Source: Botryllus schlosseri (lineage: Eukaryota). From it: a stretch of 64,000 nucleotides of DNA. The DNA lies in assembly GCA_051294905.1 (NCBI GenBank), contig CM119372.1:10914001-10978000 (forward strand). Direction: 5' to 3'. Made by a program: the position numbers and the translations under genes. Of the stretch, positions 4,645 to 64,000 are shown one piece after another. The notes beneath the pieces were generated by a model. That model searched no databases. It saw only the letters and a list, made by a program, of their open reading frames with translations, and had not been told where the DNA came from. Position 1 is the stretch's first letter. Each line of letters opens with the position of its first letter.

Positions 4645-4672
4645 ATAGTTATCTCTGCGACGAAGATAAAGC

Positions 4673-29620: not shown

Positions 29621-30351
29621 CGGTGTAAAGAGGAGGCATGCACACTGAATGAATGTTAAGAAGATAGTATAGAAAAAGAAAGCGACAAGAATAGGGCGGC
29701 ATATCATGAGAAGCGAGATCGATTGGTCAGTCGTGTTCCGGTAATCTTCCACGGTCGCACAAATTTCTATGACCGCTGGTTGGCCATCCCTGGTTTACAC
29801 GAATGACATGGCGAGGAGGAGCCTAGATAAACTTCCAACACATTAGGTAGGAATAGCGAGGAGTCTAGTTAAACCTGCAAACACTTGGGTAGGAATTCTG
29901 GAGCCAACCTCGGTCGGACTTGAACTCGTAACCGAGCGAGATAGTGTACTTTTTGCCCGCGTACCTATACGCCTGGCCGTGTATTTTCATCGCGAATCTT
30001 ACACTGGAATGTATAAAGATTTCGACGTTTATTCAATTCAACGTAAGCCTAAAAATGTAAATAATATGATTAGTTATAAATAATTTGCGTTTGTGGCCAT
30101 GCAATCTTCAGGTATTCCCGTCAAGAATCACGTAGTATGTAGCGAGATGGTCGAAGTACTTGAGTAGCCGAGTGATGAATTTCATGGCTTCAGAATTGGA
30201 GTCGTCTGGTCGAAAAGTTATATCCCATGCAGGGATGACTTGGTCCACGTCATTCGAGTACAGGTCAAGTCAATACCAAGATTGATTCAAGTCGAGTCAC
30301 CAAAAATCCTGTCATTACAGTACCCTAGCTTCGAGCGGCATCGTCGGAATT

Positions 30352-30555
30352 GTCGGCAATGGCGGCATTGTCGGCATTGGCGACGTTGGTGACATTGGCG
30401 ACGTTGGTGACATTGGCGACATTGGTGACATAGCCGACATTGGTGACATTGGCGACATTGGTGACATTGGTGACATTGGCGACATTGACAAAATAGATAC
30501 ACGTCGACATTGGCGACATTGGTGACATTGGTGACATTGGCGACATTGGCGACAT
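30352..30555. repeat. 9-bp minisatellite (GACATTGGY)n within a dispersed repeat
   Basis: About 20 units; shorter inverted homolog with the same flanks at about 27775-27970. Confidence 0.85.
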
Positions 30556-32486: not shown

Positions 32487-32782
32487 TTATGGTGCAGCAC
32501 ACTGCGAAGATTGACAGGCGCACTGAGTGGCGACTTTGTAAGTGTGCTTCTTGGTGGATCCATCAGGGCATGTCAAGTTGGCAGTCTTGGTTACTGTTTC
32601 GATGGCGGTACAGCAAGTGCACTGTTTCTGGAATGATCCAGTTTCAGACGAGAAGATCGATCCACTAGTACAGCTTCCATGGCACATGGTCATTTCGATT
32701 GGTTCTGTAGATTTACATCCCTCAAATTCGATGTGTTCGCTGAAGTCGACAGTTGGAGCACAACCGTTTGATGATTTTGTTT
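32487..32782 (-). CDS. Terminal exon: C-terminal cystine knot
   Basis: GC...GCKSTEPIEMTMCHGSC...CTCC...LTCPDGS...CAC, then TAA. Confidence 0.92.
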
Positions 32783-41700: not shown

Positions 41701-44700
41701 AGATCGCTATCGACGTGTGCGTCAGCGATGGCGAGAGTGTTGTCTGCTACATCGACTTCGACGCCGTGACCGCCAGAATGATCACCGTCCACATTGACGC
41801 CGAGTCCCATTGGGCCCATGGCGAATTGGAATCCGTTGTTTGCGTTGGCGTGTGCAATAGCATCACCGCTTCCGTAGTGAGGTCCTCCGGTTGCGATTGC
41901 TTTAGCAGCGGCGTTGTTTCCGAAGTTAAGGTTAATTCCGCCCATACCCATGTTTGCGAAGAGGTCGCCGTATTGTCCTTTGCCTCCTTCGGTGGTGACA
42001 TCAACTGCAAGATCGCTATCGACGTGTGCGTCAGCGATGGCGAGAGTGTTGTCTGCTACATCGACTTCGACGCCGTGACCGCCAGAATGATCACCGTCCA
42101 CATTGACGCCGAGTCCCATTGGGCCCATGGCGAATTGGAATCCGTTGTTTGCGTTGGCGTGTGCAATAGCATCACCGCTTCCGTAGTGAGGTCCTCCGGT
42201 TGCGATTGCTTTAGCAGCGGCGTTGTTTCCGAAGTTAAGGTTAATTCCGCCCATACCCATGTTTGCGAAGAGGTCGCCGTATTGTCCTTTGCCTCCGTCG
42301 GTGGTGACATCAACTGCAAGATCGCTATCGACGTGTGCGTCAGCGATGGCGAGAGTGTTGTCTGCTACATCGACTTCGACGCCGTGACCGCCAGAATGAT
42401 CACCGTCCACATTGACGCCGAGTCCCATTGGGCCCATGGCGAATTGGAATCCGTTGTTTGCGTTGGCGTGTGCAATAGCATCACCGCTTCCGTAGTGAGG
42501 TCCTCCGGTTGCGATTGCTTTAGCAGCGGCGTTGTTTCCGAAGTTAAGGTGAATTCCGCCCATACCCATGTTTGCGAAGAGGTCGCCGTATTGTCCTTTG
42601 CCTCCGTCGGTGGTGACATCAACTGCAAGATCGCTATCGACGTGTGCGTCAGCGATGGCGAGAGTGTTGTCTGCTACATCGACTTCGACGCCGTGACCGC
42701 CAGAATGATCACCGTCCACATTGACGCCGAGTCCCATTGGGCCCATGGCGAATTGGAATCCGTTGTTTGCGTTGGCGTGTGCAATAGCATCACCGCTTCC
42801 GTAGTGAGGTCCTCCGGTTGCGATTGCTTTAGCAGCGGCGTTGTTTCCGAAGTTAAGGTTAATTCCGCCCATACCCATGTTTGCGAAGAGGTCGCCGTAT
42901 TGTCCTTTGCCTCCGTCGGTGGTGACATCAACTGCAAGATCGCTATCGACGTGTGCGTCAGCGATGGCGAGAGTGTTGTCTGCTACATCGACTTCGACGC
43001 CGTGACCGCCAGAATGATCACCGTCCACATTGACGCCGAGTCCCATTGGGCCCATGGCGAATTGGAATCCGTTGTTTGCGTTGGCGTGTGCAATAGCATC
43101 ACCGCTTCCGTAGTGAGGTCTTCCTGTTGCGATTGCTTTAGCAGCGGCGTTGTTTCCGAAGTTAAGGTTAATTCCGCCCATACCCATGTTTGCGAAGAGG
43201 TCGCCGTATTGTCCTTTGCCTCCGTCGGTGGTGACATCAACTGCAAGATCGCTATCGACGTGTGCGTCAGCGATGGCGAGAGTGTTGTCTGCTACATCGA
43301 CTTCGACGCCGTGATCGCCAGAATGATCACCGTCCACATTGACGCCGAGTCCCATTGGGCCCATGGCGAATTGGAATCCGTTGTTTGCGTTGGCGTGTGC
43401 AATAGCATCACCGCTTCCGTAGTGAGGTCCTCCGGTTGCGATTGCTTTAGCAGCGGCGTTGTTTCCGAAGTTAAGGTTAATTCCGCCCATACCCATGTTT
43501 GCGAAGAGGTCGCCGTATTGTCCTTTGCCTCCGTCGGTGGTGACATCAACTGCAAGATCGCTATCGACGTGTGCGTCAGCGATGGCGAGAGTGTTGTCTG
43601 CTACATCGACTTCGACGCCGTGACCGCCAGAATGATCACCGTCCACATTGACGCCGAGTCCCATTGGGCCCATGGCGAATTGGAATCCGTTGTTTGCGTT
43701 GGCGTGTGCAATAGCATCACCGCTTCCGTAGTGAGGTCCTCCGGTTGCGATTGCTTTAGCAGCGGCGTTGTTTCCGAAGTTAAGGTTAATTCCGCCCATA
43801 CCCATGTTTGCGAAGAGGTCGCCGTATTGTCCTTTGCCTCCGTCGGTGGTGACATCAACTGCAAGATCGCTATCGACGTGTGCGTCAGCGATGGCGAGAG
43901 TGTTGTCTGCTACATCGACTTCGACGCCGTGATCGCCTGAATGATCACCGTCCACATTGACGCCGAGTCCCATTGGGCCCATGGCGAATTGGAATCCGTT
44001 GTTTGCGTTGGCGTGTGCAATAGCATCACCGCTTCCGTAGTGAGGTCCTCCGGTTGCGATTGCTTTAGCAGCGGCGTTGTTTCCGAAGTTAAGGTTAATT
44101 CCGCCCATACCCATGTTTGCGAAGAGGTCGCCGTATTGTCCTTTGCCTCCGTCGGCGGTGACATCAACTGCAAGATCGCTATCGACGTGTGCGTCAGCGA
44201 TGGCGAGAGTGTTGTCTGCTACATCGACTTCGACGCCGTGACCGCCAGAATGATCACCGTCCACATTGACGCCGAGTCCCATTGGGCCCATGGCGAATTG
44301 GAATCCGTTGTTTGCGTTGGCGTGTGCAATAGCATCACCGCTTCCGTAGTGAGGTCCTCCGGTTGCGATTGCTTTAGCAGCGGCGTTGTTTCCGAAGTTA
44401 AGGTTAATTCCGCCCATACCCATGTTTGCGAAGAGGTCGCCGTATTGTCCTTTGCCTCCGTCGGTGGTGACATCAACTGCAAGATCACTATCGACGTGTG
44501 CGTCAGCGATGGCGAGAGTGTTGTCTGCTACATCGACTTCGACGCCGTGACCGCCAGAATGATCACCGTCCACATTGACGCCGAGTCCCATTGGGCCCAT
44601 GGCGAATTGGAATCCGTTGTTTGCGTTGGCGTGTGCAATAGCATCACCGCTTCCGTAGTGAGGTCCTCCGGTTGCGATTGCTTTAGCAGCGGCGTTGTTT

Positions 44701-47700
44701 CCGAAGTTAAGGTTAATTCCGCCCATACCCATGTTTGCGAAGAGGTCGCCGTATTGTCCTTTGCCTCCGTCGGTGGTGACATCAACTGCAAGATCGCTAT
44801 CGACGTGTGCGTCAGCGATGGCGAGAGTGTTGTCTGCTACATCGACTTCGACGCCGTGACCGCCAGAATGATCACCGTCCACATTGACGCCGAGTCCCAT
44901 TGGGCCCATGGCGAATTGGAATCCGTTGTTTGCGTTGGCGTGTGCAATAGCATCACCGCTTCCGTAGTGAGGTCCTCCGGTTGCGATTGCTTTAGCAGCG
45001 GCGTTGTTTCCGAAGTTAAGGTTAATTCCGCCCATACCCATGTTTGCGAAGAGGTCGCCGTATTGTCCTTTGCCTCCGTCGGTGGTGACATCAACTGCAA
45101 GATCGCTATCGACGTGTGCGTCAGCGATGGCGAGAGTGTTGTCTGCTACATCGACTTCGACGCCGTGATCGCCTGAATGATCACCGTCCACATTGACGCC
45201 GAGTCCCATTGGGCCCATGGCGAATTGGAATCCGTTGTTTGCGTTGGCGTGTGCAATAGCATCACCGCTTCCGTAGTGAGGTCCTCCGGTTGCGATTGCT
45301 TTAGCAGCGGCGTTGTTTCCGAAGTTAAGGTTAATTCCGCCCATACCCATGTTTGCGAAGAGGTCGCCGTATTGTCCTTTGCCTCCGTCGGTGGTGACAT
45401 CAACTGCAAGATCGCTATCGACGTGTGCGTCAGCGATGGCGAGAGTGTTGTCTGCTACATCGACTTCGACGCCGTGACCGCCAGAATGATCACCGTCCAC
45501 ATTGACGCCGAGTCCCATTGGGCCCATGGCGAATTGGAATCCGTTGTTTGCGTTGGCGTGTGCAATAGCATCACCGCTTCCGTAGTGAGGTCCTCCGGTT
45601 GCGATTGCTTTAGCAGCGGCGTTGTTTCCGAAGTTAAGGTTAATTCCGCCCATACCCATGTTTGCGAAGAGGTCGCCGTATTGTCCTTTGCCTCCTTCGG
45701 TGGTGACATCAACTGCAAGATCGCTATCGACGTGTGCGTCAGCGATGGCGAGAGTGTTGTCTGCTACATCGACTTCGACGCCGTGACCGCCAGAATGATC
45801 ACCGTCCACATTGACGCCGAGTCCCATTGGGCCCATGGCGAATTGGAATCCGTTGTTTGCGTTGGCGTGTGCAATAGCATCACCGCTTCCGTAGTGAGGT
45901 CCTCCGGTTGCGATTGCTTTAGCAGCGGCGTTGTTTCCGAAGTTAAGGTTAATTCCGCCCATACCCATGTTTGCGAAGAGGTCGCCGTATTGTCCTTTGC
46001 CTCCGTCGGTGGTGACATCAACTGCAAGATCGCTATCGACGTGTGCGTCAGCGATGGCGAGAGTGTTGTCTGCTACATCGACTTCGACGCCGTGACCGCC
46101 AGAATGATCACCGTCCACATTGACGCCGAGTCCCATTGGGCCCATGGCGAATTGGAATCCGTTGTTTGCGTTGGCGTGTGCAATAGCATCACCGCTTCCG
46201 TAGTGAGGTCCTCCGGTTGCGATTGCTTTAGCAGCGGCGTTGTTTCCGAAGTTAAGGTGAATTCCGCCCATACCCATGTTTGCGAAGAGGTCGCCGTATT
46301 GTCCTTTGCCTCCGTCGGTGGTGACATCAACTGCAAGATCGCTATCGACGTGTGCGTCAGCGATGGCGAGAGTGTTGTCTGCTACATCGACTTCGACGCC
46401 GTGACCGCCAGAATGATCACCGTCCACATTGACGCCGAGTCCCATTGGGCCCATGGCGAATTGGAATCCGTTGTTTGCGTTGGCGTGTGCAATAGCATCA
46501 CCGCTTCCGTAGTGAGGTCCTCCGGTTGCGATTGCTTTAGCAGCGGCGTTGTTTCCGAAGTTAAGGTTAATTCCGCCCATACCCATGTTTGCGAAGAGGT
46601 CGCCGTATTGTCCTTTGCCTCCGTCGGTGGTGACATCAACTGCAAGATCGCTATCGACGTGTGCGTCAGCGATGGCGAGAGTGTTGTCTGCTACATCGAC
46701 TTCGACGCCGTGACCGCCAGAATGATCACCGTCCACATTGACGCCGAGTCCCATTGGGCCCATGGCGAATTGGAATCCGTTGTTTGCGTTGGCGTGTGCA
46801 ATAGCATCACCGCTTCCGTAGTGAGGTCCTCCGGTTGCGATTGCTTTAGCAGCGGCGTTGTTTCCGAAGTTAAGGTTAATTCCGCCCATACCCATGTTTG
46901 CGAAGAGGTCGCCGTATTGTCCTTTGCCTCCGTCGGTGGTGACATCAACTGCAAGATCGCTATCGACGTGTGCGTCAGCGATGGCGAGAGTGTTGTCTGC
47001 TACATCGACTTCGACGCCGTGACCGCCAGAATGATCACCGTCCACATTGACGCCGAGTCCCATTGGGCCCATGGCGAATTGGAATCCGTTGTTTGCGTTG
47101 GCGTGTGCAATAGCATCACCGCTTCCGTAGTGAGGTCCTCCGGTTGCGATTGCTTTAGCAGCGGCGTTGTTTCCGAAGTTAAGGTTAATTCCGCCCATAC
47201 CCATGTTTGCGAAGAGGTCGCCGTATTGTCCTTTGCCTCCGTCGGTGGTGACATCAACTGCAAGATCGCTATCGACGTGTGCGTCAGCGATGGCGAGAGT
47301 GTTGTCTGCTACATCGACTTCGACGCCGTGACCGCCAGAATGATCACCGTCCACATTGACGCCGAGTCCCATCGGGCCCATGGCGAATTGGAATCCGTTG
47401 TTTGCGTTGGCGTGTGCAATAGCATCACCGCTTCCGTAGTGAGGTCCTCCGGTTGCGATTGCTTTAGCAGCGGCATTGTTTCCGAAGTTAAGGTTAATTC
47501 CGCCCATACCCATGTTTGCGAAGAGGTCGCCGTATTGTCCTTTGCCTCCGTCGGTGGTGACATCAACTGCAAGATCGCTATCGACGTGTGCGTCAGCGAT
47601 GGCGAGAGTGTTGTCTGCTACATCGACTTCGACGCCGTGACCGCCAGAATGATCACCGTCCACATTGACGCCGAGTCCCATTGGGCCCATGGCGAATTGG

Positions 47701-50700
47701 AATCCGTTGTTTGCGTTGGCGTGTGCAATAGCATCACCGCTTCCGTAGTGAGGTCCTCCGGTTGCGATTGCTTTAGCAGCGGCGTTGTTTCCGAAGTTAA
47801 GGTTAATTCCGCCCATACCCATGTTTGCGAAGAGGTCGCCGTATTGTCCTTTGCCTCCGTCGGTGGTGACATCAACTGCAAGATCGCTATCGACGTGTGC
47901 GTCAGCGATGGCGAGAGTGTTGTCTGCTACATCGACTTCGACGCCGTGACCGCCAGAATGATCACCGTCCACATTGACGCCGAGTCCCATTGGGCCCATG
48001 GCGAATTGGAATCCGTTGTTTGCGTTGGCGTGTGCAATAGCATCACCGCTTCCGTAGTGAGGTCCTCCGGTTGCGATTGCTTTAGCAGCGGCGTTGTTTC
48101 CGAAGTTAAGGTTAATTCCGCCCATACCCATGTTTGCGAAGAGGTCGCCGTATTGTCCTTTGCCTCCGTCGGTGGTGACATCAACTGCAAGATCGCTATC
48201 GACGTGTACGTCAGCGATGGCGAGAGTGTTGTCTGCTACATCGACTTCGACGCCGTGACCGCCAGAATGATCACCGTCCACATTGACGCCGAGTCCCATT
48301 GGGCCCATGGCGAATTGGAATCCGTTGTTTGCGTTGGCGTGTGCAATAGCATCACCGCTTCCGTAGTGAGGTCCTCCGGTAGCGATTGCTTTAGCAGCGG
48401 CGTTGTTTCGGAAGTTAAGGTTAATTCCGCCCATACCCATGTTTGCGAAGAGGTCGCCGTATTGTCCTTTGCCTCCGTCGGTGGTGACATCAACTGCAAG
48501 ATCGCTATCGACGTGTGCGTCAGCGATGGCGAGAGTGTTGTCTGCTACATCGACTTCGACGCCGTGACCGCCAGAATGATCACCGTCCACATTGACGCCG
48601 AGTCCCATTGGGCCCATGGCGAATTGGAATCCGTTGTTTGCGTTGGCGTGTGCAATAGCATCACCGCTTCCGTAGTGAGGTCCTCCGGTTGCGATTGCTT
48701 TAGCAGCGGCGTTGTTTCCGAAGTTAAGGTTAATTCCGCCCATACCCATGTTTGCGAAGAGGTCGCCGTATTGTCCTTTGCCTCCGTCGGTGGTGACATC
48801 AACTGCAAGATCGCTATCGACGTGTGCGTCAGCGATGGCGAGAGTGTTGTCTGCTACATCGACTTCGACGCCGTGACCGCCAGAATGATCACCGTCCACA
48901 TTGACGCCGAGTCCCATTGGGCCCATGGCGAATTGGAATCCGTTGTTTGCGTTGGCGTGTGCAATAGCATCACCGCTTCCGTAGTGAGGTCCTCCGGTTG
49001 CGATTGCTTTAGCAGCGGCGTTGTTTCCGAAGTTAAGGTTAATTCCGCCCATACCCATGTTTGCGAAGAGGTCGCCGTATTGTCCTTTGCCTCCGTCGGT
49101 GGTGACATCAACTGCAAGATCGCTATCGACGTGTGCGTCAGCGATGGCGAGAGTGTTGTCTGCTACATCGACTTCGACGCCGTGACCGCCAGAATGATCA
49201 CCGTCCACATTGACGCCGAGTCCCATTGGGCCCATGGCGAATTGGAATCCGTTGTTTGCGTTGGCGTGTGCAATAGCATCACCGCTTCCGTAGTGAGGTC
49301 CTCCGGTTGCGATTGCTTTAGCAGCGGCGTTGTTTCCGAAGTTAAGGTTAATTCCGCCCATACCCATGTTTGCGAAGAGGTCGCCGTATTGTCCTTTGCC
49401 TCCGTCGGTGGTGACATCAACTGCAAGATCGCTATCGACGTGTGCGTCAGCGATGGCGAGAGTGTTGTCTGCTACATCGACTTCGACGCCGTGACCGCCA
49501 GAATGATCACCGTCCACATTGACGCCGAGTCCCATTGGGCCCATGGCGAATTGGAATCCGTTGTTTGCGTTGGCGTGTGCAATAGCATCACCGCTTCCGT
49601 AGTGAGGTCCTCCGGTTGCGATTGCTTTAGCAGCGGCGTTGTTTCCGAAGTTAAGGTTAATTCCGCCCATACCCATGTTTGCGAAGAGGTCGCCGTATTG
49701 TCCTTTGCCTCCGTCGGTGGTGACATCAACTGCAAGATCGCTATCGACGTGTGCGTCAGCGATGGCGAGAGTGTTGTCTGCTACATCGACTTCGACGCCG
49801 TGACCGCCAGAATGATCACCGTCCACATTGACGCCGAGTCCCATTGGGCCCATGGCGAATTGGAATCCGTTGTTTGCGTTGGCGTGTGCAATAGCATCAC
49901 CGCTTCCGTAGTGAGGTCCTCCGGTTGCGATTGCTTTAGCAGCGGCGTTGTTTCCGAAGTTAAGGTTAATTCCGCCCATAACCATGTTTGCGAAGAGGTC
50001 GCCGTATTGTCCTTTGCCTCCGTCGGTGGTGACATCAACTGCAAGATCGCTATCGACGTGTGCGTCAGCGATGGCGAGAGTGTTGTCTGCTACATCGACT
50101 TCGACGCCGTGACCGCCAGAATGATCACCGTCCACATTGACGCCGAGTCCCATTGGGCCCATGGCGAATTGGAATCCGTTGTTTGCGTTGGCGTGTGCAA
50201 TAGCATCACCGCTTCCGTAGTGAGGTCCTCCGGTTGCGATTGCTTTAGCAGCGGCGTTGTTTCCGAAGTTAAGGTTAATTCCGCCCATACCCATGTTTGC
50301 GAAGAGGTCGCCGTATTGTCCTTTGCCTCCGTCGGTGGTGACATCAACTGCAAGATCGCTATCGACGTGTGCGTCAGCGATGGCGAGAGTGTTGTCTGCT
50401 ACATCGACTTCGACGCCCTGACCGCCAGAATGATCACCGTCCACATTGACGCCGAGCCCCATTGGGCCCATGGCGAATTGGAATCCGTTGTTTGCGTTGG
50501 CGTGTGCAATAGCATCACCGCTTCCGTAGTGAGGTCCTCCGGTTGCGATTGCTTTAGCAGCGGCGTTGTTTCCGAAGTTAAGGTTAATTCCGCCCATACC
50601 CATGTTTGCGAAGAGGTCGCCGTATTGTCCTTTGCCTCCGTCGGTGGTGACATCAACTGCAAGATCGCTATCGACGTGTGCGTCAGCGATGGCGAGAGTG

Positions 50701-53700
50701 TTGTCTGCTACATTGACTTCGACGCCGTGACCGCCAGAATGATCACCGTCCACATTGACGCCGAGTGCCATTGGGCCCATGGCGAATTGGAATCCGTTGT
50801 TTGCGTTGGCGTGTGCAATAGCATCACCGCTTCCGTAGTGAGGTCCTCCGGTTGCGATTGCTTTAGCAGCGGCGTTGTTTCCGAAGTTAAGGTTAATTCC
50901 GCCCATACCCATGTTTGCGAAGAGGTCGCCGTATTGTCCTTTGCCTCCGTCGGTGGTGACATCAACTGCAAGATCGCTATCGACGTGTGCGTCAGCGATG
51001 GCGAGAGTGTTGTCTGCTACATCGACTTCGACGCCGTGACCGCCAGAATGATCACCGTCCACATTGACGCCGAGTCCCATTGGGCCCATGGCGAATTGGA
51101 ATCCGTTGTTTGCGTTGGCGTGTGCAATAGCATCACCGCTTCCGTAGTGAGGTCCTCCGGTTGCGATTGCTTTAGCAGCGGCGTTGTTTCCGAAGTTAAG
51201 GTTAATTCCGCCCATACCCATGTTTGCGAAGAGGTCGCCGTATTGTCCTTTGCCTCCGTCGGTGGTGACATCAACTGCAAGATCGCTATCGACGTGTGCG
51301 TCAGCGATGGCGAGAGTGTTGTCTGCTACATCGACTTCGACGCCGTGACCGCCAGAATGATCACCGTCCACATTGACGCCGAGTCCCATTGGGCCCATGG
51401 CGAATTGGAATCCGTTGTTTGCGTTGGCGTGTGCAATAGCATCACCGCTTCCGTAGTGAGGTCCTCCGGTTGCGATTGCTTTAGCAGCGGCGTTGTTTCC
51501 GAAGTTAAGGTTAATTCCGCCCATACCCATGTTTGCGAAGAGGTCGCCGTATTGTCCTTTGCCTCCGTCGGTGGTGACATCAACTGCAAGATCGCTATCG
51601 ACGTGTGCGTCAGCGATGGCGAGAGTGTTGTCTGCTACATCGACTTCGACGCCGTGACCGCCAGAATGATCACCGTCCACATTGACGCCGAGTCCCATTG
51701 GGCCCATGGCGAATTGGAATCCGTTGTTTGCGTTGGCGTGTGCAATAGCATCACCGCTTCCGTAGTGAGGTCCTCCGGTTGCGATTGCTTTAGCAGCGGC
51801 GTTGTTTCCGAAGTTAAGGTTAATTCCGCCCATACCCATGTTTGCGAAGAGGTCGCCGTATTGTCCTTTGCCTCCGTCGGTGGTGACATCAACTGCAAGA
51901 TCGCTATCGACGTGTGCGTCAGCGATGGCGAGAGTGTTGTCTGCTACTTCGACTTCGACGCCGTGACCGCCAGAATGATCACCGTCCACATTGACGCCGA
52001 GCCCCATTGGGCCCATGGCGAATTGGAATCCGTTGTTTGCGTTGGCGTGTGCAATAGCATCACCGCTTCCGTAGTGAGGTCCTCCGGTTGCGATTGCTTT
52101 AGCAGCGGCGTTGTTTCCGAAGTTAAGGTTAATTCCGCCCATACCCATGTTTGCGAAGAGGTCGCCGTATTGTCCTTTGCCTCCGTCGGTGGTGACATCA
52201 ACTGCAAGATCGCTATCGACGTGTGCGTCAGCGATGGCGAGAGTGTTGTCTGCTACATCGACTTCGACGCCGTGACCGCCAGAATGATCACCGTCCACAT
52301 TGACGCCGAGTCCCATTGGGCCCATGGCGAATTGGAATCCGTTGTTTGCGTTGGCGTGTGCAATAGCATCACCGCTTCCGTAGTGAGGTCCTCCGGTTGC
52401 GATTGCTTTAGCAGCGGCGTTGTTTCCGAAGTTAAGGTTAATTCCGCCCATACCCATGTTTGCGAAGAGGTCGCCGTATTGTCCTTTGCCTCCGTCGGTG
52501 GTGACATCAACTGCAAGATCGCTATCGACGTGTGCGTCAGCGATGGCGAGAGTGTTGTCTGCTACATCGACTTCGACGCCGTGACCGCCAGAATGATCAC
52601 CGTCCACATTGACGCCGAGTCCCATTGGGCCCATGGCGAATTGGAATCCGTTGTTTGCGTTGGCGTGTGCAATAGCATCACCGCTTCCGTAGTGAGGTCC
52701 TCCGGTTGCGATTGCTTTAGCAGCGGCGTTGTTTCCGAAGTTAAGGTTAATTCCGCCCATACCCATGTTTGCGAAGAGGTCGCCGTATTGTCCTTTGCCT
52801 CCGTCGGTGGTGACATCAACTGCAAGATCGCTATCGACGTGTGCGTCAGCGATGGCGAGAGTGTTGTCTGCTACATCGACTTCGACGCCGTGACCGCCAG
52901 AATGATCACCGTCCACATTGACGCCGAGTCCCATTGGGCCCATGGCGAATTGGAATCCGTCGTTTGCGTTGGCGTGTGCAATAGCATCACCGCTTCCGTA
53001 GTGAGGTCCTCCGGTTGCGATTGCTTGAGCAGCGGCGTTGTTTCCGAAGTTAAGGTTAATTCCGCCCATACCCATGTTTGCGAAGAGGTCGCCGTATTGT
53101 CCTTTGCCTCCGTCGGTGGTGACATCAACTGCAAGATCGCTATCGACGTGTGCGTCAGCGATGGCGAGAGTGTTGTCTGCTACATCGACTTCGACGCCGT
53201 GACCGCCAGAATGATCACCGTCCACATTGACGCCGAGTCCCATTGGGCCCATGGCGAATTGGAATCCGTTGTTTGCGTTGGCGTGTGCAATAGCATCACC
53301 GCTTCCGTAGTGAGGTCCTCCGGTTGCGATTGCTTTAGCAGCGGCGTTGTTTCCGAAGTTAAGGTTAATTCCGCCCATACCCATGTTTGCGAAGAGGTCG
53401 CCGTATTGTCCTTTGCCTCCGTCGGTGGTGACATCAACTGCAAGATCGCTATCGACGTGTGCGTCAGCGATGGCGAGAGTGTTGTCTGCTACATCGACTT
53501 CGACGCCGTGACCGCCAGAATGATCACCGTCCACATTGACGCCGAGTCCCATTGGGCCCATGGCGAATTGGAATCCGTTGTTTGCGTTGGCGTGTGCAAT
53601 AGCATCACCGCTTCCGTAGTGAGGTCCTCCGGTTGCGATTGCTTTAGCAGCGGCGTTGTTTCCGAAGTTAAGGTGAATTCCGCCCATACCCATGTTTGCG

Positions 53701-56700
53701 AAGAGGTCGCCGTATTGTCCTTTGCCTCCGTCGGTGGTGACATCAACTGCAAGATCGCTATCGACGTGTGCGTCAGCGATGGCGAGAGTGTTGTCTGCTA
53801 CATCGACTTCGACGCCGTGACCGCCAGAATGATCACCGTCCACATTGACGCCGAGTCCCATTGGGCCCATGGCGAATTGGAATCCGTTGTTTGCGTTGGC
53901 GTGTGCAATAGCATCACCGCTTCCGTAGTGAGGTCCTCCGGTTGCGATTGCTTTAGCAGCGGCGTTGTTTCCGAAGTTAAGGTTAATTCCGCCCATACCC
54001 ATGTTTGCGAAGAGGTCGCCGTATTGTCCTTTGCCTCCGTCGGTGGTGACATCAACTGCAAGATCGCTATCGACGTGTGCGTCAGCGATGGCGAGAGTGT
54101 TGTCTGCTACATCGACTTCGACGCCGTGACCGCCAGAATGATCACCGTCCACATTGACGCCGAGTCCCATTGGGCCCATGGCGAATTGGAATCCATTGTT
54201 TGCGCTGGCGTGTGCAATAGCATCACCGCTTCCGTAGTGAGGTCCTCCGGTTGCGATTGCTTTAGCAGCGGCGTTGTTTCCGAAGTTAAGGTTAATTCCG
54301 CCCATACCCATGTTTGCGAAGAGGTCGCCGTATTGTCCTTTGCCTCCGTCGGTGGTGACATCAACTGCAAGATCGCTATCGACGTGTGCGTCAGCGATGG
54401 CGAGAGTGTTGTCTGCTACATCGACTTCGACGCCGTGACCGCCAGAATGATCACCGTCCACATTGACGCCGAGTCCCATTGGGCCCATGGCGAATTGGAA
54501 TCCGTTGTTTGCGCTGGCGTGTGCAATAGCATCACCGCTTCCGTAGTGAGGTCCTCCGGTTGCGATTGCTTTAGCAGCGGCGTTGTTTCCGAAGTTAAGG
54601 TTAATTCCGCCCATACCCATGTTTGCGAAGAGGTCGCCGTATTGTCCTTTGCCTCCGTCGGTGGTGACATCAACTGCAAGATCGCTATCGACGTGTGCGT
54701 CAGCGATGGCGAGAGTGTTGTCTGCTACATCGACTTCGACGCCGTGACCGCCAGAATGATCACCGTCCACATTGACGCCGAGTCCCATTGGGCCCATGGC
54801 GAATTGGAATCCGTTGTTTGCGTTGGCGTGTGCAATAGCATCACCGCTTCCGTAGTGAGGTCCTCCGGTTGCGATTGCTTTAGCAGCGGCGTTGTTTCCG
54901 AAGTTAAGGTTAATTCCGCCCATACCCATGTTTGCGAAGAGGTCGCCGTATTGTCCTTTGCCTCCGTCGGTGGTGACATCAACTGCAAGATCGCTATCGA
55001 CGTGTGCGTCAGCGATGGCGAGAGTGTTGTCTGCTACATCGACTTCGACGCCGTGACCGCCAGAATGATCACCGTCCACATTGACGCCGAGTCCCATTGG
55101 GCCCATGGCGAATTGGAATCTGTTGTTTGCGTTGGCGTGTGCAATAGCATCACCGCTTCCGTAGTGAGGTCCTCCGGTTGCGATTGCTTTAGCAGCGGCG
55201 TTGTTTCCGAAGTTAAGGTTAATTCCGCCCATACCCATGTTTGCGAAGAGGTCGCCGTATTGTCCTTTGCCTCCGTCGGTGGTGACATCAACTGCAAGAT
55301 CGCTATCGACGTGTGCGTCAGCGATGGCGAGAGTGTTGTCTGCTACATCGACTTCGACGCCGTGATCGCCTGAATGATCACCGTCCACATTGACGCCGAG
55401 TCCCATTGGGCCCATGGCGAATTGGAATCCGTTGTTTGCGTTGGCGTGTGCAATAGCATCACCGCTTCCGTAGTGAGGTCCTCCGGTTGCGATTGCTTTA
55501 GCAGCGGCGTTGTTTCCGAAGTTAAGGTTAATTCCGCCCATACCCATGTTTGCGAAGAGGTCGCCGTATTGTCCTTTGCCTCCGTCGGTGGTGACATCAA
55601 CTGCAAGATCGCTATCGACGTGTGCGTCAGCGATGGCGAGAGTGTTGTCTGCTACATCGACTTCGACGCCGTGACCGCCAGAATGATCACCGTCCACATT
55701 GACGCCGAGTCCCATTGGGCCCATGGCGAATTGGAATCCGTTGTTTGCGTTGGCGTGTGCAATAGCATCACCGCTTCCGTAGTGAGGTCCTCCGGTTGCG
55801 ATTGCTTTAGCAGCGGCGTTGTTTCCGAAGTTAAGGTTAATTCCGCCCATACCCATGTTTGCGAAGAGGTCGCCGTATTGTCCTTTGCCTCCGTCGGTGG
55901 TGACATCAACTGCAAGATCGCTATCGACGTGTGCGTCAGCGATGGCGAGAGTGTTGTCTGCTACATCGACTTCGACGCCGTGACCGCCAGAATGATCACC
56001 GTCCACATTGACGCCGAGTCCCATTGGGCCCATGGCGAATTGGAATCCGTTGTTTGCGTTGGCGTGTGCAATAGCATCACCGCTTCCGTAGTGAGGTCCT
56101 CCGGTTGCGATTGCTTTAGCAGCGGCGTTGTTTCCGAAGTTAAGGTTAATTCCGCCCATACCCATGTTTGCGAAGAGGTCGCCGTATTGTCCTTTGCCTC
56201 CGTCGGTGGTGACATCAACTGCAAGATCGCTATCGACGTGTGCGTCAGCGATGGCGAGAGTGTTGTCTGCTACATCGACTTCGACGCCGTGACCGCCAGA
56301 ATGATCACCGTCCACATTGACGCCGAGTCCCATTGGGCCCATGGCGAATTGGAATCCGTTGTTTGCGTTGGCGTGTGCAATAGCATCACCGCTTCCGTAG
56401 TGAGGTCCTCCGGTTGCGATTGCTTTAGCAGCGGCGTTGTTTCCGAAGTTAAGGTTAATTCCGCCCATACCCATGTTTGCGAAGAGGTCGCCGTGTTGTC
56501 CTTTGCCTCCGTCGGTGGTGACATCAACTGCAAGATCGCTATCGACGTGTGCGTCAGCGATGGCGAGAGTGTTGTCTGCTACATCGACTTCGACGCCGTG
56601 ACCGCCAGAATGATCACCGTCCACATTGACGCCGAGCCCCATTGGGCCCATGGCGAATTGGAATCCGTTGTTTGCGTTGGCGTGTGCAATAGCATCACCG

Positions 56701-59700
56701 CTTCCGTAGTGAGGTCCTCCGGTTGCGATTGCTTTAGCAGCGGCGTTGTTTCCGAAGTTAAGGTTAATTCCGCCCATACCCATGTTTGCGAAGAGGTCGC
56801 CGTATTGTCCTTTGCCTCCGTCGGTGGTGACATCAACTGCAAGATCGCTATCGACGTGTGCGTCAGCGATGGCGAGAGTGTTGTCTGCTACATCGACTTC
56901 GACGCCGTGACCGCCAGAATGATCACCGTCCACATTGACGCCGAGTCCCATTGGGCCCATGGCGAATTGGAATCCGTTGTTTGCGTTGGCGTGTGCAATA
57001 GCATCACCGCTTCCGTAGTGAGGTCCTCCGGTTGCGATTGCTTTAGCAGCGGCGTTGTTTCCGAAGTTAAGGTTAATTCCGCCCATACCCATGTTTGCGA
57101 AGAGGTCGCCGTATTGTCCTTTGCCTCCGTCGGTGGTGACATCAACTGCAAGATCGCTATCGACGTGTGCGTCAGCGATGGCGAGAGTGTTGTCTGCTAC
57201 ATCGACTTCGACGCCGTGACCGCCAGAATGATCACCGTCCACATTGACGCCGAGTCCCATTGGGCCCATGGCGAATTGGAATCCGTTGTTTGCGTTGGCG
57301 TGTGCAATAGCATCACCGCTTCCGTAGTGAGGTCCTCCGGTTGCGATTGCTTTAGCAGCGGCGTTGTTTCCGAAGTTAAGGTTAATTCCGCCCATACCCA
57401 TGTTTGCGAAGAGGTCGCCGTATTGTCCTTTGCCTCCGTCGGTGGTGACATCAACTGCAAGATCGCTATCGACGTGTGCGTCAGCGATGGCGAGAGTGTT
57501 GTCTGCTACATCGACTTCGACGCCGTGACCGCCAGAATGATCACCGTCCACATTGACGCCGAGTCCCATTGGGCCCATGGCGAATTGGAATCCGTCGTTT
57601 GCGTTGGCGTGTGCAATAGCATCACCGCTTCCGTAGTGAGGTCCTCCGGTTGCGATTGCTTTAGCAGCGGCGTTGTTTCCGAAGTTAAGGTTAATTCCGC
57701 CCATACCCATGTTTGCGAAGAGGTCGCCGTATTGTCCTTTGCCTCCGTCGGTGGTGACATCAACTGCAAGATCGCTATCGACGTGTGCGTCAGCGATGGC
57801 GAGAGTGTTGTCTGCTACATCGACTTCGACGCCGTGACCGCCAGAATGATCACCGTCCACATTGACGCCGAGTCCCATTGGGCCCATGGCGAATTGGAAT
57901 CCGTTGTTTGCGTTGGCGTGTGCAATAGCATCACCGCTTCCGTAGTGAGGTCCTCCGGTTGCGATTGCTTTAGCAGCGGCGTTGTTTCCGAAGTTAAGGT
58001 TAATTCCGCCCATACCCATGTTTGCGAAGAGGTCGCCGTATTGTCCTTTGCCTCCGTCGGTGGTGACATCAACTGCAAGATCGCTATCGACGTGTGCGTC
58101 AGCGATGGCGAGAGTGTTGTCTGCTACATCGACTTCGACGCCGTGACCGCCAGAATGATCACCGTCCACATTGACGCCGAGTCCCATTGGGCCCATGGCG
58201 AATTGGAATCCGTTGTTTGCGTTGGCGTGTGCAATAGCATCACCGCTTCCGTAGTGAGGTCCTCCGGTTGCGATTGCTTTAGCAGCGGCGTTGTTACCGA
58301 AGTTAAGGTGAATTCCGCCCATACCCATGTTTGCGAAGAGGTCGCCGTATTGTCCTTTGCCTCCGTCGGTGGTGACATCAACTGCAAGATCGCTATCGAC
58401 GTGTGCGTCAGCGATGGCGAGAGTGTTGTCTGCTACATCGACTTCGACGCCGTGACCGCCAGAATGATCACCGTCCACATTGACGCCGAGTCCCATTGGG
58501 CCCATGGCGAATTGGAATCCGTTGTTTGCGTTGGCGTGTGCAATAGCATCACCGCTTCCGTAGTGAGGTCCTCCGGTTGCGATTGCTTTAGCAGCGGCGT
58601 TGTTTCCGAAGTTAAGGTTAATTCCGCCCATACCCATGTTTGCGAAGAGGTCGCCGTATTGTCCTTTGCCTCCGTCGGTGGTGACATCAACTGCAAGATC
58701 GCTATCGACGTGTGCGTCAGCGATGGCGAGAGTGTTGTCTGCTACATCGACTTCGACGCCGTGACCGCCAGAATGATCACCGTCCACATTGACGCCGAGT
58801 CCCATTGGGCCCATGGCGAATTGGAATCCGTTGTTTGCGCTGGCGTGTGCAATAGCATCACCGCTTCCGTAGTGAGGTCCTCCGGTTGCGATTGCTTTAG
58901 CAGCGGCGTTGTTTCCGAAGTTAAGGTTAATTCCGCCCATACCCATGTTTGCGAAGAGGTCGCCGTATTGTCCTTTGCCTCCGTCGGTGGTGACATCAAC
59001 TGCAAGATCGCTATCGACGTGTGCGTCAGCGATGGCGAGAGTGTTGTCTGCTACATCGACTTCGACGCCGTGACCGCCAGAATGATCACCGTCCACATTG
59101 ACGCCGAGTCCCATTGGGCCCATGGCGAATTGGAATCCGTTGTTTGCGCTGGCGTGTGCAATAGCATCACCGCTTCCGTAGTGAGGTCCTCCGGTTGCGA
59201 TTGCTTTAGCAGCGGCGTTGTTTCCGAAGTTAAGGTTAATTCCGCCCATACCCATGTTTGCGAAGAGGTCGCCGTATTGTCCTTTGCCTCCGTCGGTGGT
59301 GACATCAACTGCAAGATCGCTATCGACGTGTGCGTCAGCGATGGCGAGAGTGTTGTCTGCTACATCGACTTCGACGCCGTGACCGCCAGAATGATCACCG
59401 TCCACATTGACGCCGAGTCCCATTGGGCCCATGGCGAATTGGAATCCGTTGTTTGCGTTGGCGTGTGCAATAGCATCACCGCTTCCGTAGTGAGGTCCTC
59501 CGGTTGCGATTGCTTTAGCAGCGGCGTTGTTTCCGAAGTTAAGGTTAATTCCGCCCATACCCATGTTTGCGAAGAGGTCGCCGTATTGTCCTTTGCCTCC
59601 GTCGGTGGTGACATCAACTGCAAGATCGCTATCGACGTGTGCGTCAGCGATGGCGAGAGTGTTGTCTGCTACATCGACTTCGACGCCGTGACCGCCAGAA

Positions 59701-62700
59701 TGATCACCGTCCACATTGACGCCGAGTCCCATTGGGCCCATGGCGAATTGGAATCCGTTGTTTGCGTTGGCGTGTGCAATAGCATCACCGCTTCCGTAGT
59801 GAGGTCCTCCGGTTGCGATTGCTTTAGCAGCGGCGTTGGAAGCGGTGATGCTATTGCACACGCCAACGCAAACAACGGATTCCAATTCGCCATGGGCCCA
59901 ATGGGACTCGGCGTCAATGTGGACGGTGATCATTCTGGCGGTCACGGCGTCGAAGTCGATGGCGAGAGTGTTGTCTGCTACATCGACTTCGACGCCGTGA
60001 TCGCCTGAATGATCACCGTCCACATTGACGCCGAGTCCCATTGGGCCCATGGCGAATTGGAATCCGTTGTTTGCGTTGGCGTGTGCAATAGCATCACCGC
60101 TTCCGTAGTGAGGTCCTCCGGTTGCGATTGCTTTAGCAGCGGCGTTGTTTCCGAAGTTAAGGTTAATTCCGCCCATACCCATGTTTGCGAAGAGGTCGCC
60201 GTATTGTCCTTTGCCTCCGTCGGTGGTGACATCAACTGCAAGATCGCTATCGACGTGTGCGTCAGCGATGGCGAGAGTGTTGTCTGCTACATCGACTTCG
60301 ACGCCGTGACCGCCAGAATGATCACCGTCCACATTGACGCCGAGTCCCATTGGGCCCATGGCGAATTGGAATCCGTTGTTTGCGTTGGCGTGTGCAATAG
60401 CATCACCGCTTCCGTAGTGAGGTCCTCCGGTTGCGATTGCTTTAGCAGCGGCGTTGTTTCCGAAGTTAAGGTTAATTCCGCCCATACCCATGTTTGCGAA
60501 GAGGTCGCCGTATTGTCCTTTGCCTCCGTCGGTGGTGACATCAACTGCAAGATCGCTATCGACGTGTGCGTCAGCGATGGCGAGAGTGTTGTCTGCTACA
60601 TCGACTTCGACGCCGTGACCGCCAGAATGATCACCGTCCACATTGACGCCGAGTCCCATTGGGCCCATGGCGAATTGGAATCCGTTGTTTGCGTTGGCGT
60701 GTGCAATAGCATCACCGCTTCCGTAGTGAGGTCCTCCGGTTGCGATTGCTTTAGCAGCGGCGTTGTTTCCGAAGTTAAGGTTAATTCCGCCCATACCCAT
60801 GTTTGCGAAGAGGTCGCCGTATTGTCCTTTGCCTCCGTCGGTGGTGACATCAACTGCAAGATCGCTATCGACGTGTGCGTCAGCGATGGCGAGAGTGTTG
60901 TCTGCTACATCGACTTCGACGCCGTGACCGCCAGAATGATCACCGTCCACATTGACGCCGAGTCCCATTGGGCCCATGGCGAATTGGAATCCGTTGTTTG
61001 CGTTGGCGTGTGCAATAGCATCACCGCTTCCGTAGTGAGGTCCTCCGGTTGCGATTGCTTTAGCAGCGGCGTTGTTTCCGAAGTTAAGGTTAATTCCGCC
61101 CATACCCATGTTTGCGAAGAGGTCGCCGTGTTGTCCTTTGCCTCCGTCGGTGGTGACATCAACTGCAAGATCGCTATCGACGTGTGCGTCAGCGATGGCG
61201 AGAGTGTTGTCTGCTACATCGACTTCGACGCCGTGACCGCCAGAATGATCACCGTCCACATTGACGCCGAGTCCCATTGGGCCCATGGCGAATTGGAATC
61301 CGTTGTTTGCGTTGGCGTGTGCAATAGCATCACCGCTTCCGTAGTGAGGTCCTCCGGTTGCGATTGCTTTAGCAGCGGCGTTGTTTCCGAAGTTAAGGTT
61401 AATTCCGCCCATACCCATGCTTGCGAAGAGGTCGCCGTATTGTCCTTTGCCTCCGTCGGTGGTGACATCAACTGCAAGATCGCTATCGACGTGTGCGTCA
61501 GCGATGGCGAGAGTGTTGTCTGCTACATCGACTTCGACGCCGTGACCGCCAGAATGATCACCGTCCACATTGACGCCGAGTCCCATTGGGCCCATGGCGA
61601 ATTGGAATCCGTTGTTTGCGTTGGCGTGTGCAATAGCATCACCGCTTCCGTAGTGAGGTCCTCCGGTTGCGATTGCTTTAGCAGCGGCGTTGTTTCCGAA
61701 GTTAAGGTTAATTCCGCCCATACCCATGTTTGCGAAGAGGTCGCCGTATTGTCCTTTGCCTCCGTCGGTGGTGACATCAACTGCAAGATCGCTATCGACG
61801 TGTGCGTCAGCGATGGCGAGAGTGTTGTCTGCTACATCGACTTCGACGCCGTGACCGCCAGAATGATCACCGTCCACATTGACGCCGAGTCCCATTGGGC
61901 CCATGGCGAATTGGAATCCGTTGTTTGCGTTGGCGTGTGCAATAGCATCACCGCTTCCGTAGTGAGGTCCTCCGGTTGCGATTGCTTTAGCAGCGGCGTT
62001 GTTTCCGAAGTTAAGGTTCATTCCGCCCATACCCATGTTTGCGAAGAGGTCGCCGTATTGTCCTTTGCCTCCGTCGGTGGTGACATCAACTGCAAGATCG
62101 CTATCGACGTGTGCGTCAGCGATGGCGAGAGTGTTGTCTGCTACATCGACTTCGACGCCGTGACCGCCAGAATGATCACCGTCCACATTGACGCCGAGTC
62201 CCATTGGGCCCATGGCGAATTGGAATCCGTTGTTTGCGTTGGCGTGTGCAATAGCATCACCGCTTCCGTAGTGAGGTCCTCCGGTTGCGATTGCTTTAGC
62301 AGCGGCGTTGTTTCCGAAGTTAAGGTTAATTCCGCCCATACCCATGTTTGCGAAGAGGTCGCCGTATTGTCCTTTGCCTCCGTCGGTGGTGACATCAACT
62401 GCAAGATCGCTATCGACGTGTGCGTCAGCGATGGCGAGAGTGTTGTCTGCTACATCGACTTCGACGCCGTGATCGCCTGAATGATCACCGTCCACATTGA
62501 CGCCGAGTCCCATTGGGCCCATGGCGAATTGGAATCCGTTGTTTGCGTTGGCGTGTGCAATAGCATCACCGCTTCCGTAGTGAGGTCCTCCGGTTGCGAT
62601 TGCTTTAGCAGCGGCGTTGTTTCCGAAGTTAAGGTTAATTCCGCCCATACCCATGTTTGCGAAGAGGTCGCCGTATTGTCCTTTGCCTCCGTCGGTGGTG

Positions 62701-64000
62701 ACATCAACTGCAAGATCGCTATCGACGTGTGCGTCAGCGATGGCGAGAGTGTTGTCTGCTACATCGACTTCGACGCCGTGACCGCCAGAATGATCACCGT
62801 CCACATTGACGCCGAGTCCCATTGGGCCCATGGCGAATTGGAATCCGTTGTTTGCGTTGGCGTGTGCAATAGCATCACCGCTTCCGTAGTGAGGTCCTCC
62901 GGTTGCGATTGCTTTAGCAGCGGCGTTGTTTCCGAAGTTAAGGTTAATTCCGCCCATACCCATGTTTGCGAAGAGGTCGCCGTATTGTCCTTTGCCTCCG
63001 TCGGTGGTGACATCAACTGCAAGATCGCTATCGACGTGTGCGTCAGCGATGGCGAGAGTGTTGTCTGCTACATCGACTTCGACGCCGTGACCGCCAGAAT
63101 GATCACCGTCCACATTGACGCCGAGTCCCATTGGGCCCATGGCGAATTGGAATCCGTTGTTTGCGTTGGCGTGTGCAATAGCATCACCGCTTCCGTAGTG
63201 AGGTCCTCCGGTTGCGATTGCTTTAGCAGCGGCGTTGTTTCCGAAGTTAAGGTTAATTCCGCCCATACCCATGTTTGCGAAGAGGTCGCCGTATTGTCCT
63301 TTGCCTCCGTCGGTGGTGACATCAACTGCAAGATCGCTATCGACGTGTGCGTCAGCGATGGCGAGAGTGTTGTCTGCTACATCGACTTCGACGCCGTGAC
63401 CGCCAGAATGATCACCGTCCACATTGACGCCGAGTCCCATTGGGCCCATGGCGAATTGGAATCCGTTGTTTGCGTTGGCGTGTGCAATAGCATCACCGCT
63501 TCCGTAGTGAGGTCCTCCGGTTGCGATTGCTTTAGCAGCGGCGTTGTTTCCGAAGTTAAGGTTAATTCCGCCCATACCCATGTTTGCGAAGAGGTCGCCG
63601 TATTGTCCTTTGCCTCCGTCGGTGGTGACATCAACTGCAAGATCGCTATCGACGTGTGCGTCAGCGATGGCGAGAGTGTTGTCTGCTACATCGACTTCGA
63701 CGCCGTGACCGCCAGAATGATCACCGTCCACATTGACGCCGAGTCCCATTGGGCCCATGGCGAATTGGAATCTGTTGTTTGCGTTGGCGTGTGCAATAGC
63801 ATCACCGCTTCCGTAGTGAGGTCCTCCGGTTGCGATTGCTTTAGCAGCGGCGTTGTTTCCGAAGTTAAGGTTAATTCCGCCCATACCCATGTTTGCGAAG
63901 AGGTCGCCGTATTGTCCTTTGCCTCCGTCGGTGGTGACATCAACTGCAAGATCGCTATCGACGTGTGCGTCAGCGATGGCGAGAGTGTTGTCTGCTACAT
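32487..64000 (-). CDS. Giant vWF/gel-forming-mucin-architecture protein (5' end outside window), over 9,300 aa visible
   Basis: Giant repeat exon (from beyond 64000 to 40333) spliced in frame to 17 GT-AG exons with consistent phases: 40171-39532, 39475-39281, 39144-38979, 38473-38369, 38054-37953, 37827-37609, 37115-36883, 36822-36478, 36413-36069, 35975-35781, 35723-35499, 35042-34597, 34527-34337, 34110-33883, 33452-33231, 32983-32840, 32782-32487. Confidence 0.88.
32840..35975 (-). CDS. Seven exons encoding tandem vWC-like Cys-rich modules
   Basis: Repeated C..C...CCPxYECxC units; GEQW, GSVW and GQTW vWC starts. Confidence 0.85.
36069..37115 (-). CDS. Three exons encoding vWD-C8-TIL
   Basis: CTGYS...ISTFDG...CPCTHVLA; VPAKFSGKTEGLCG...NDL; CSALAAYATEC...WRSARLC; YSACGP...TC...EGCFC. 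Confidence 0.88.
37609..39475 (-). CDS. Five exons encoding vWC-like modules
   Basis: GSVWRENAGCENCICIGGEVKC, GETWVCEDTCEECTC, GDSWEHATDSCLICEC, repeated CCPxYEC. Confidence 0.85.
39532..40171 (-). CDS. Exon: Cys-rich modules, one diverged repeat unit and a TIL-like tail
   Basis: CDPEQC...CCASYECLCNPTKCP...CCPVKKC, then ALAHANSF...SNAAKATA, then CPADKYFDGYTCVFAQDCPC. Confidence 0.85.
40333..64000 (-). CDS. Giant coding exon (at least 23,668 nt) of 103-aa repeats ending in a vWC-like start
   Basis: Stop-free 7853-aa ORF; ends CVDETGRERSFGETWYCNGDPCIVSAC...EIK at donor AA|GTAAGT; phase 2 matches the acceptor at 40171. Confidence 0.88.
40510..64000. repeat. Coding tandem array, 309-bp unit, about 76 copies
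   Basis: Exact 309-bp periodicity in sequence and ORF track; interior units differ by only 0-2 substitutions, except the rearranged unit near 59840. Confidence 0.98.

Follow-up and report, generated by a model that had tools for sequence, protein, structure and literature searches.

A length-neutral inverted copy in a giant coding repeat array of Botryllus schlosseri as a candidate two-switch template-switch mutation

We analysed a 64,000-nt window of the Botryllus schlosseri assembly GCA_051294905.1 (contig CM119372.1), in which one unit of a giant coding array of 309-bp repeats has 118 bp replaced by an inverted copy of repeat sequence. In our judgement (probability about 0.6), this copy arose in the animal when replication switched template twice in one recent event. 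As to its class, it is best read as a template-switch mutation of type 3-2-1-4 with two switches, close to the upper length known for such events. The assembled sequence is confirmed, and the insert is probably also real in the animal, at better than even odds. The insert would be a known type of mutation and indicates no new system or function.

We compared the insert directly with its surroundings (Table 1). The sequence-only reading had described a perfect 124-bp stem with a 42-nt loop, and indeed the inverted copy is the exact reverse complement of the left arm, far beyond chance; the stem extends neither inward nor outward. It had also stated that 118 bp were swapped for 118 bp with junction matches of 1 bp and 5 bp, which our comparison bears out: against both adjoining units, the differences span 59839-59956, where 80 of 118 positions differ, and two further SNVs lie outside the insert, at 60001 and 60006. 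A second pairing escaped that reading: the insert is complementary to the right unit as well, at 122/124 positions and over a 19-nt spacer. Arms and spacers add up to the repeat period (2x124 + 42 + 19 = 309). The short inverted repeat CGATG...CATCG of the 19-nt spacer is native to every unit. A 13-mer scan of the 64-kb window found no second inverted copy of the 309-bp unit. In-place inversion was ruled out, as reverse-complementing the replaced 118 bp does not yield the insert.

Table 1. Features of the window, with positions counted from its first nucleotide.
Feature	Position	Strand	Description
Downstream host-gene exons (predicted)	32487..40264	-	VWD, C8, VWC and C-terminal cystine knot
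Predicted GT-AG intron, 68 bp	40265..40332	-	Keeps the frame between the giant exon and the following Cys-rich exon; collinear with the Styela clava protein
Giant exon (predicted)	40333..63998	-	About 76 copies of a 309-bp (103-aa) Gly/Ala/Asp/Asn-rich unit, then the start of a Cys-rich segment; 5' end open at the window edge
Matching position in the 15-unit duplicate	55204..55321		Normal sequence
Left arm	59672..59795	+	Normal repeat sequence, 124/124 to the insert; nearest possible donor
Spacer (loop), left arm to insert, 42 nt	59796..59837		Normal repeat sequence
Inverted copy	59838..59961	-	118 new bp (59839-59956) plus junction matches at 59838 (1 bp) and 59957-59961 (CGATG, 5 bp)
Spacer, insert to right arm, 19 nt	59962..59980		Holds the short inverted repeat CGATG...CATCG
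Right arm (next unit)	59981..60104	+	122/124 complementary to the insert; has 60001T and 60006T

The SNVs of the array provide a built-in ancestral state and reveal the type of donor. The insert lacks 60001T and 60006T, a pair present in 6 of 75 units, which rules out the right unit as direct donor. The two SNVs thus point to a left-type donor and to a return one unit further on; as 55 of 75 units have the identical 124 bp, the donor is not uniquely fixed. The flanking markers (96T>C in units 58745 and 59054, and 60001T/60006T) are separated by the same count of units as in a 15-unit duplicate elsewhere in the array, with no extra unit. This duplication is supported by seven unit pairs with common variants and shows five differences in 4635 bp. 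As claimed from the sequence alone, the duplicate is normal at the matching position, and the shared SNVs are most simply explained if the insertion came after the duplication.

A template switch, already suspected in the sequence-only reading, fits both the geometry and the 5-bp junction match. When the remaining units and the 15-unit duplicate are used to set the ancestral state, the points 59677, 59794, 59838 and 59957 give the order 3-2-1-4 (mirror 1-4-3-2) with the left unit as donor. The insert is a reverse-complement copy of sequence 42 nt away, and one inverted fragment explains all 80 differences in 59839-59956. In the path that we propose, the growing plus strand would have halted at 59838 (a mirror path would be indistinguishable), its end would have turned back 42 nt onto plus-strand sequence and copied 59795 down to 59672, and the new 3' end, CGATG, would then have re-paired with the template at 59957-59961, at the same motif one unit on. 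Since this re-pairing would fall exactly one unit on, no length would be gained. A match of at least 5 bp has a chance of 0.45% at a random inverted junction in the 309-bp unit; at the first switch of the plus-strand path, homology is limited to 1 bp, which counts against this path. A Ripley quasi-palindrome correction was ruled out because only 38/118 ancestral positions agree with the complement of the donor; moreover, that register ranks 56/309 for prior pairing, and the normal single strand does not fold into the quasi-palindrome pairing.

Type 3-2-1-4/1-4-3-2 makes up 31% of high-confidence human-chimp template-switch events (PMC5453318). In apes, the copied length has a median of 12 bp and a maximum of 128 bp, and 5.5% of the events are length-neutral (PMC7954356); an indel-free variant set includes events of 119 and 125 bp in human VNTRs (10.1101/2021.11.26.470150). 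The two coding cases judged real in one of these human studies led to a premature stop and to alterations of a transcript destined for NMD. As in these four-point switches, a nearby inverted copy here replaces a local segment and yields a perfect inverted repeat, no prior palindrome being needed; the differences are that our insert is near the top of the length range, lies in a coding exon and keeps the frame. The layout also recalls small inverted triplications (SITs), found in yeast rad27/FEN1 mutants and in cancers, whose yeast medians are 160 bp for the inverted part, 148 bp for the arms, 30 bp for the spacers and 6 bp for the junctions (PMC13334657). Indeed, the DUP/IN/DUP arrangement with two short spacers is present (arm/spacer/inverted/spacer/arm of 124/42/124/19/124 bp against 148/30/160/30/148), as are short junction matches (1 and 5 bp). 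However, the two 191-bp flanking copies are not identical, having different bases at 60001 and 60006, and the unit count did not rise: on its return the strand joined the next unit instead of copying the same one again. A pure inverted triplication is ruled out by the 60001/60006 pair, which is common to 6/75 units. Membership in the SIT class would also imply junctions at Okazaki-fragment ends and a dependence on FEN1/Rad27. Re-engagement at the second switch is called unresolved in the SIT paper (PMC13334657), and the exact length neutrality of our insert, if confirmed, would be a small clue to it. In S. cerevisiae, template switching uses short prior inverted repeats and changes up to five neighbouring residues (PMC8604942). 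There too, one switch alters several adjoining codons and can mimic adaptation; here, in contrast, there is no prior repeat, and 40 codons are rewritten in an antisense frame. If reads confirm it, the insert would be an unusually long and clean coding case, with 40 codons rewritten at once against at most five in the yeast survey.

The coding effect was also as first described. The 309-bp period and the frame are kept, the minus-strand ORF 40329-63998 having no internal stop. The insert is read in the codon-to-anticodon antisense frame, with 40 codons changed and 5 of 40 residues unchanged. It contains the array's only Cys (59870 and 59858) and Trp (59900), a point on which the earlier reading was correct; the remaining four Cys and one Trp of the ORF sit in the non-repeat tail. 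The transcript of the insert allele is predicted to form a very stable 124-bp hairpin. One unit in at least 76 would hold the foreign 40-residue stretch, and the allele is probably of recent origin, private or mosaic, and without function. Sequence searches with the repeat and with the chimeric peptide found no relatives, a Pfam scan of the 309-bp unit gave no match, and exact scans of JGI metagenome contigs returned 0 matches to a junction 38-mer or a normal-unit 34-mer. Single-sequence AlphaFold2 on three normal units gave no fold (mean pLDDT 42.9) and was uninformative.

Under random return, exact length neutrality has a chance of 0.5-1.1%. We discarded a figure of 3/34 possible returns being neutral because it was conditioned on the observed junction. 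The neutrality is roughly a 1% coincidence, and it is unexplained: the neutral register shows no special prior pairing (rank 27/61 among in-frame shifts), and zippering in register has no support as its cause, shift 0 ranking 30/181 by identity and 15/181 by stacked pairs. The open frame, on the other hand, is readily obtained in simulations, whose null was built on the majority unit and included no selection. The frame stayed open in 39,345 of 95,481 length-neutral 118-nt replacements (41%), and 635 of the 851 with a junction match of at least 5 bp (75%) were stop-free. Of these 851 events, 614 fell in the codon-to-anticodon phase, 603 of them stop-free. The codons of the unit are rich in purine-N-pyrimidine and do not include TTA, CTA or TCA, which is why microhomologies concentrate in this register and why it is stop-free. 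The open frame is likely a by-product, not a sign of selection. The sequence-only proposal that the replacement was tolerated only because its antisense frame lacks stops is a conjecture, as open frames arise commonly in the simulations with no selection at all. If the event is confirmed, it would illustrate that codon bias is able to preserve the frame in such events with no selection. More tentatively, a fold-back switch in coding arrays of purine-N-pyrimidine codons may return in register on the next unit and write an antisense module in one step, and we may have caught one such allele at birth. If so, the mRNA hairpin could pair with every other unit, and concerted evolution could spread or erase the module.

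It is possible, if on the whole unlikely, that the insert is an artefact: the array may exceed the reads in length, and its assembly may have taken in a mis-stitched path or a single chimeric molecule, formed by polymerase strand switching when the library was repaired or amplified. The sequence-only reading had raised this caveat, which stands, since among the records listed neither junction is bridged in any of four public runs (4/4), none of them metagenome-labelled or with a small share of the sampled words, although contigs drop rare paths and the animals were perhaps others. Run X1 has zero depth over 59818-59835, though error-like contigs of depth 6-35 were kept nearby; normal-unit contigs fully explain the depth of the left flank in run X3 and of both flanks in run X4, and run X24 yielded three partial reads. 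No indexed run has all of 30 sampled words, the best having 27/30 (0.90); junction words should account for about 16% of the words sampled. Moreover, an array of more than 23 kb with more than 99% identity would be hard to assemble, and in one study about 0.55-0.6% of ONT genomic reads were foldbacks (PMC12870357). The foldback artefacts of that study are single turns, filtered by closeness to the read midpoint, and virtually absent from the HiFi data examined; the insert has two junctions, one of them with a 5-bp match, and returns in register, so it does not resemble them and falls outside the foldback definition, which covers single reversals and does not reach a double-switch chimera. Zero indels separate the 75 units compared, which is what an accurate assembly would show. 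Junction matches of 1-5 bp are too short for graph-based gap fillers, which depend on long overlaps. The public runs also carry unit variants absent from all 75 units of the window, so they may not come from the source animal or haplotype. Should the insert prove an artefact, it would be a warning that long-read assemblies of giant coding arrays may include plausible in-frame chimeras.

An improbable origin for a real insert is that the inversion was born in another unit or haplotype, by a hairpin-primed event or as a true small inverted triplication, and then moved by gene conversion with short flanks. The sum of arms and spacers to 309 speaks for this, as does the lowest-energy DNA fold of a minus strand ending at 59957, a self-priming CGATG/CATCG hairpin with a 19-nt spacer (-3.6 kcal/mol), which is a better primer than a 1-bp match. 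The left unit also lacks 85C>T, a variant of its duplicate at 55037 that a conversion tract would erase, but this variant sits at a CpG, is also found at unit 63689 and can thus recur. Conversion further requires two events, and the window holds no second inverted copy. We give very little credence to a selected innovation, either a Cys-x-x-x-Cys/Trp cross-linking site in a secreted polymer or a regulatory hairpin. The VWD, C8, VWC and cystine-knot domains of the host gene, together with the presence of the array's only Cys in the insert, favour the former, and the very stable predicted hairpin favours the latter. Against both, the insert is single among 75 units, has zero substitutions since its origin and was not seen in other runs, and the open frame is the default outcome in simulation. 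In addition, 9 of 28 array SNVs are synonymous (p=0.18), with no significant purifying signal. We found no evidence for a new system or function, and a two-switch replication event remains our preferred reading.

As to the host gene, gene-structure prediction and homology make it likely that the array belongs to a vWF/mucin-like sea-squirt gene, as the 3' portion of a spliced exon. Pfam placed VWD, C8, VWC and cystine knot above cut-off, with matches in 4 of 9 segments scanned; these domains are typical of disulfide-polymerising proteins. All four lie in one spliced gene, as in vWF and gel-forming mucins, the N-terminus and signal peptide lying beyond the window. The main collinear blocks, a Cys-rich, VWD, C8, VWC and cystine-knot region, are 39-75% identical to P0001, a von Willebrand factor-like protein of Styela clava. 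In P0001, too, a Gly/Ala/Asp-rich segment precedes the Cys-rich region; its similarity to the repeat unit is not significant (E 0.094), and it consists of about 200 degenerate residues, whereas the array here is homogeneous and has 76 or more units.

Read as its reverse complement, the insert at 59838-59961 is identical to 59672-59795, from which it is separated by a 42-nt loop; the sequence-only reading had reported this hairpin, and all of its coordinates proved correct. The stem cannot be extended inward or outward. Comparison with both neighbouring units showed that the changed block (59839-59956) replaces 118 bp by 118 bp, and that outside this block the neighbours differ only by two SNVs, at 60001 and 60006. 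The junction matches of 1 bp and 5 bp were also as first described, the minus-strand frame (40329-63998) remains open through the insert, and its two Cys and one Trp are indeed the only ones within the array. The insert alters 40 codons, leaving 5 of the 40 residues unchanged. Overlooked at first was that it pairs with the right-hand unit too (122/124 bases, 19-nt spacer), giving a local layout of arm 124, spacer 42, inverted 124, spacer 19 and arm 124, with one period equal to 2x124+42+19 = 309. A 13-mer scan of the window found no other inverted copy of the 309-bp unit.

With the left unit as donor, the order of the four switch points is 3-2-1-4, or its mirror 1-4-3-2, an order reported for 31% of 794 high-confidence human-chimp events (PMC5453318). 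Ape template switches are described with a median copied length of 12 bp and a maximum of 128 bp, 5.5% of them being length-neutral (PMC7954356); in human, copied lengths of up to 318 bp are reported, and the indel-free set includes VNTR events of 119 and 125 bp (10.1101/2021.11.26.470150). Of random inverted junctions within the 309-bp unit, 0.45% have a 5-bp match, and this rarity favours a junction made by a polymerase. The event acts like a quasi-palindrome correction, yet it is not a case of one, because no near-perfect palindrome existed beforehand (ancestral pairing 38/118, rank 56/309). We infer an origin by replication, together with its strand and its date.

Yeast FEN1 mutants show small inverted triplications of a similar layout, for which medians of 148, 30 and 160 and a 6-bp junction are given (PMC13334657). 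A pure small inverted triplication was rejected: the SNVs at 60001 and 60006 distinguish the two flanking 191-bp copies, and the unit count is no higher than in the 15-unit duplicate, the array segment repeated at a lag of 15 units. These SNVs occur as a pair in 6 of 75 units, among them the duplicate at 55346, and exclude a direct copy from the right unit, even though a minus strand that stops at 59957 folds to a self-priming hairpin on that side. The left neighbour would be the nearest candidate donor; it is not proven, because 55 of the 75 units match the insert exactly.

TTA, CTA and TCA codons are absent from the unit, and its antisense frame in codon-to-anticodon phase is therefore stop-free. 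Purine-N-pyrimidine codons account for 56 of its 103 codons, and identity between the unit and its own complement is 31% in this phase, as against 21-22% in the others. When length-neutral 118-nt replacements were simulated, 39,345 of 95,481 (41%) were stop-free; a junction match of at least 5 bp was present in 851, of which 614 fell in the codon-to-anticodon phase and 635 (75%) were stop-free. Such outcomes being common, survival of the frame is hardly informative on selection. The 28 distinct SNVs of the array (9 synonymous, 19 not) gave p = 0.18 against neutrality. Microhomology-guided returns within 200 nt were length-neutral in only 0.5% of cases (1.1% in the codon-to-anticodon phase), and the in-register pairing of the insert is unremarkable; the exact length neutrality possibly reflects luck plus the noticing of striking cases. 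On the plus strand (45177-55373), the same absence of three codons keeps the antisense frame open for 3398 codons, and nothing there points to a second gene. In 6 units, this otherwise open frame is interrupted by a stop that the linked variants 21C>T/26A>T introduce.

The array, about 76 copies of the unit, extends past the right edge of the window. At its end the frame passes into the beginning of a Cys-rich segment, which a predicted GT-AG intron of 68 bp connects in frame to the next exon. Segments further downstream hit models of VWD, C8, VWC and cystine-knot domains (4 of the 9 scanned) and are collinear with a Styela clava von Willebrand factor-like protein (39-75% identity in the main blocks), which suggests an ascidian source. 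Searches detected no relatives of the repeat unit, and a single-sequence structure model of the repeat gave no fold (pLDDT 42.9). RNA evidence is thin, with 3 partial reads in 12.9 million from one RNA run; other runs gave partial word matches, the RNA nature of most being a guess. The exon after the giant one (39660-39940, minus strand) carries a short Gly/Ala/Asp-rich stretch without Cys, which by eye resembles a shuffled, diverged repeat unit.

At the lag of 15 units, 7 unit pairs have common variants, with 5 differences in 4635 bp. The event had been said to postdate this duplication, and the matching site (55204-55321) is indeed normal; however, what looks like a duplicate may be a pair of alleles assembled one after the other, in which case "postdates the duplication" becomes "heterozygous". 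Further higher-order duplications occur in the array (40823-63998): three unit pairs lie 12 units apart and two pairs 8 units apart.

Part of 59520-59990 is contained in 20 of the 24 sequencing runs listed, the best holding 27 of 30 sampled words; 54 of the 343 distinct words are junction-specific. Four public runs were compared with 59818-59977, whose flanks are short, so that coverage is expected mainly from bridging records. None of the 5 records of X4, all that it has, bridges a junction, and its flank depths are sums of normal contigs (42.4 = 22.1 + 20.3; 44.2 = 17.7 + 26.5). No bridging record was found among the best 8 of 15 in X3, whose left-flank depth is accounted for (4073 = 2421.9 + 1651), nor among the best 8 of 663 in X1, where depth is zero over 59818-59835, the right flank is ambiguous and error-like contigs are retained nearby at depth 6-35. 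X24 gave 3 reads, all partial. These results make a common allele less likely and, should X1 be the source animal, a real template switch too. They are not decisive: contigs drop rare variants, and coverage holes prove nothing. In X3 and X4, a second type of unit makes up some 40-45% of the depth. Its variants 44A>G and 51C>G, which appear in X1 and X3, are absent from all 75 units of the window; this second type may belong to another haplotype or to a sub-array lying outside the window, and X1 and X3 may therefore represent another animal or haplotype than the assembly. A foldback-type artefact from an amplified library is a possible source of the insert, but a poor fit: such artefacts are described as single turns that affect about 0.55-0.6% of genomic ONT reads and are almost never seen in the HiFi data examined (PMC12870357), and a double switch with in-register return suits that type badly.

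If the template switch is real, one unit in 76 or more would gain a more hydrophobic 40-mer with the same net charge and two Cys. The mRNA would contain a perfect 124-bp stem, and base-pairing of the insert with any of the other units could occur as well, which would make editing, small-RNA production or ribosome pausing possible. One-step creation of hairpins by template switches is known (PMC8794818), and such inverted structures are reported to be unstable (PMC13334657), which makes loss by slippage or conversion the likely fate of the insert. The closest protein-level survey reports changes of up to five neighbouring residues (PMC8604942). Among the matches listed from full-text literature, a body that mostly leaves out subscription papers, there was no case in which an inversion had introduced a peptide from the antisense frame into a coding repeat; supplementary event lists could hold comparable cases. 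The mutation type is already known, and the insert is a new, long coding candidate example of it.

Other features of the window are collected in the table. The hairpin and the related nested repeats look like a foldback or MITE family, and the two inverted copies with tandem-repeat ends are possible transposon termini.

Additional features in the window
Feature	Position (strand)	Details
Three overlapping frames	4670-7955 (+)	presumably from a Ty3/gypsy retrotransposon: gag, protease, reverse transcriptase, RNase H and integrase start (motif labels); interrupted by frameshifts
Frame with terminal motif	17570-18067 (-)	motif reminiscent of what we take to be an RluA-type pseudouridine synthase exon
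Hairpin	18564-19153	arms 244 nt, 99% complementary, loop 102 nt
Related nested inverted repeats	20135-21648	more decayed
Element with 9-bp tandem repeats at ends	27781-27974 and 30256-30555	two inverted copies, about 2.3 kb apart
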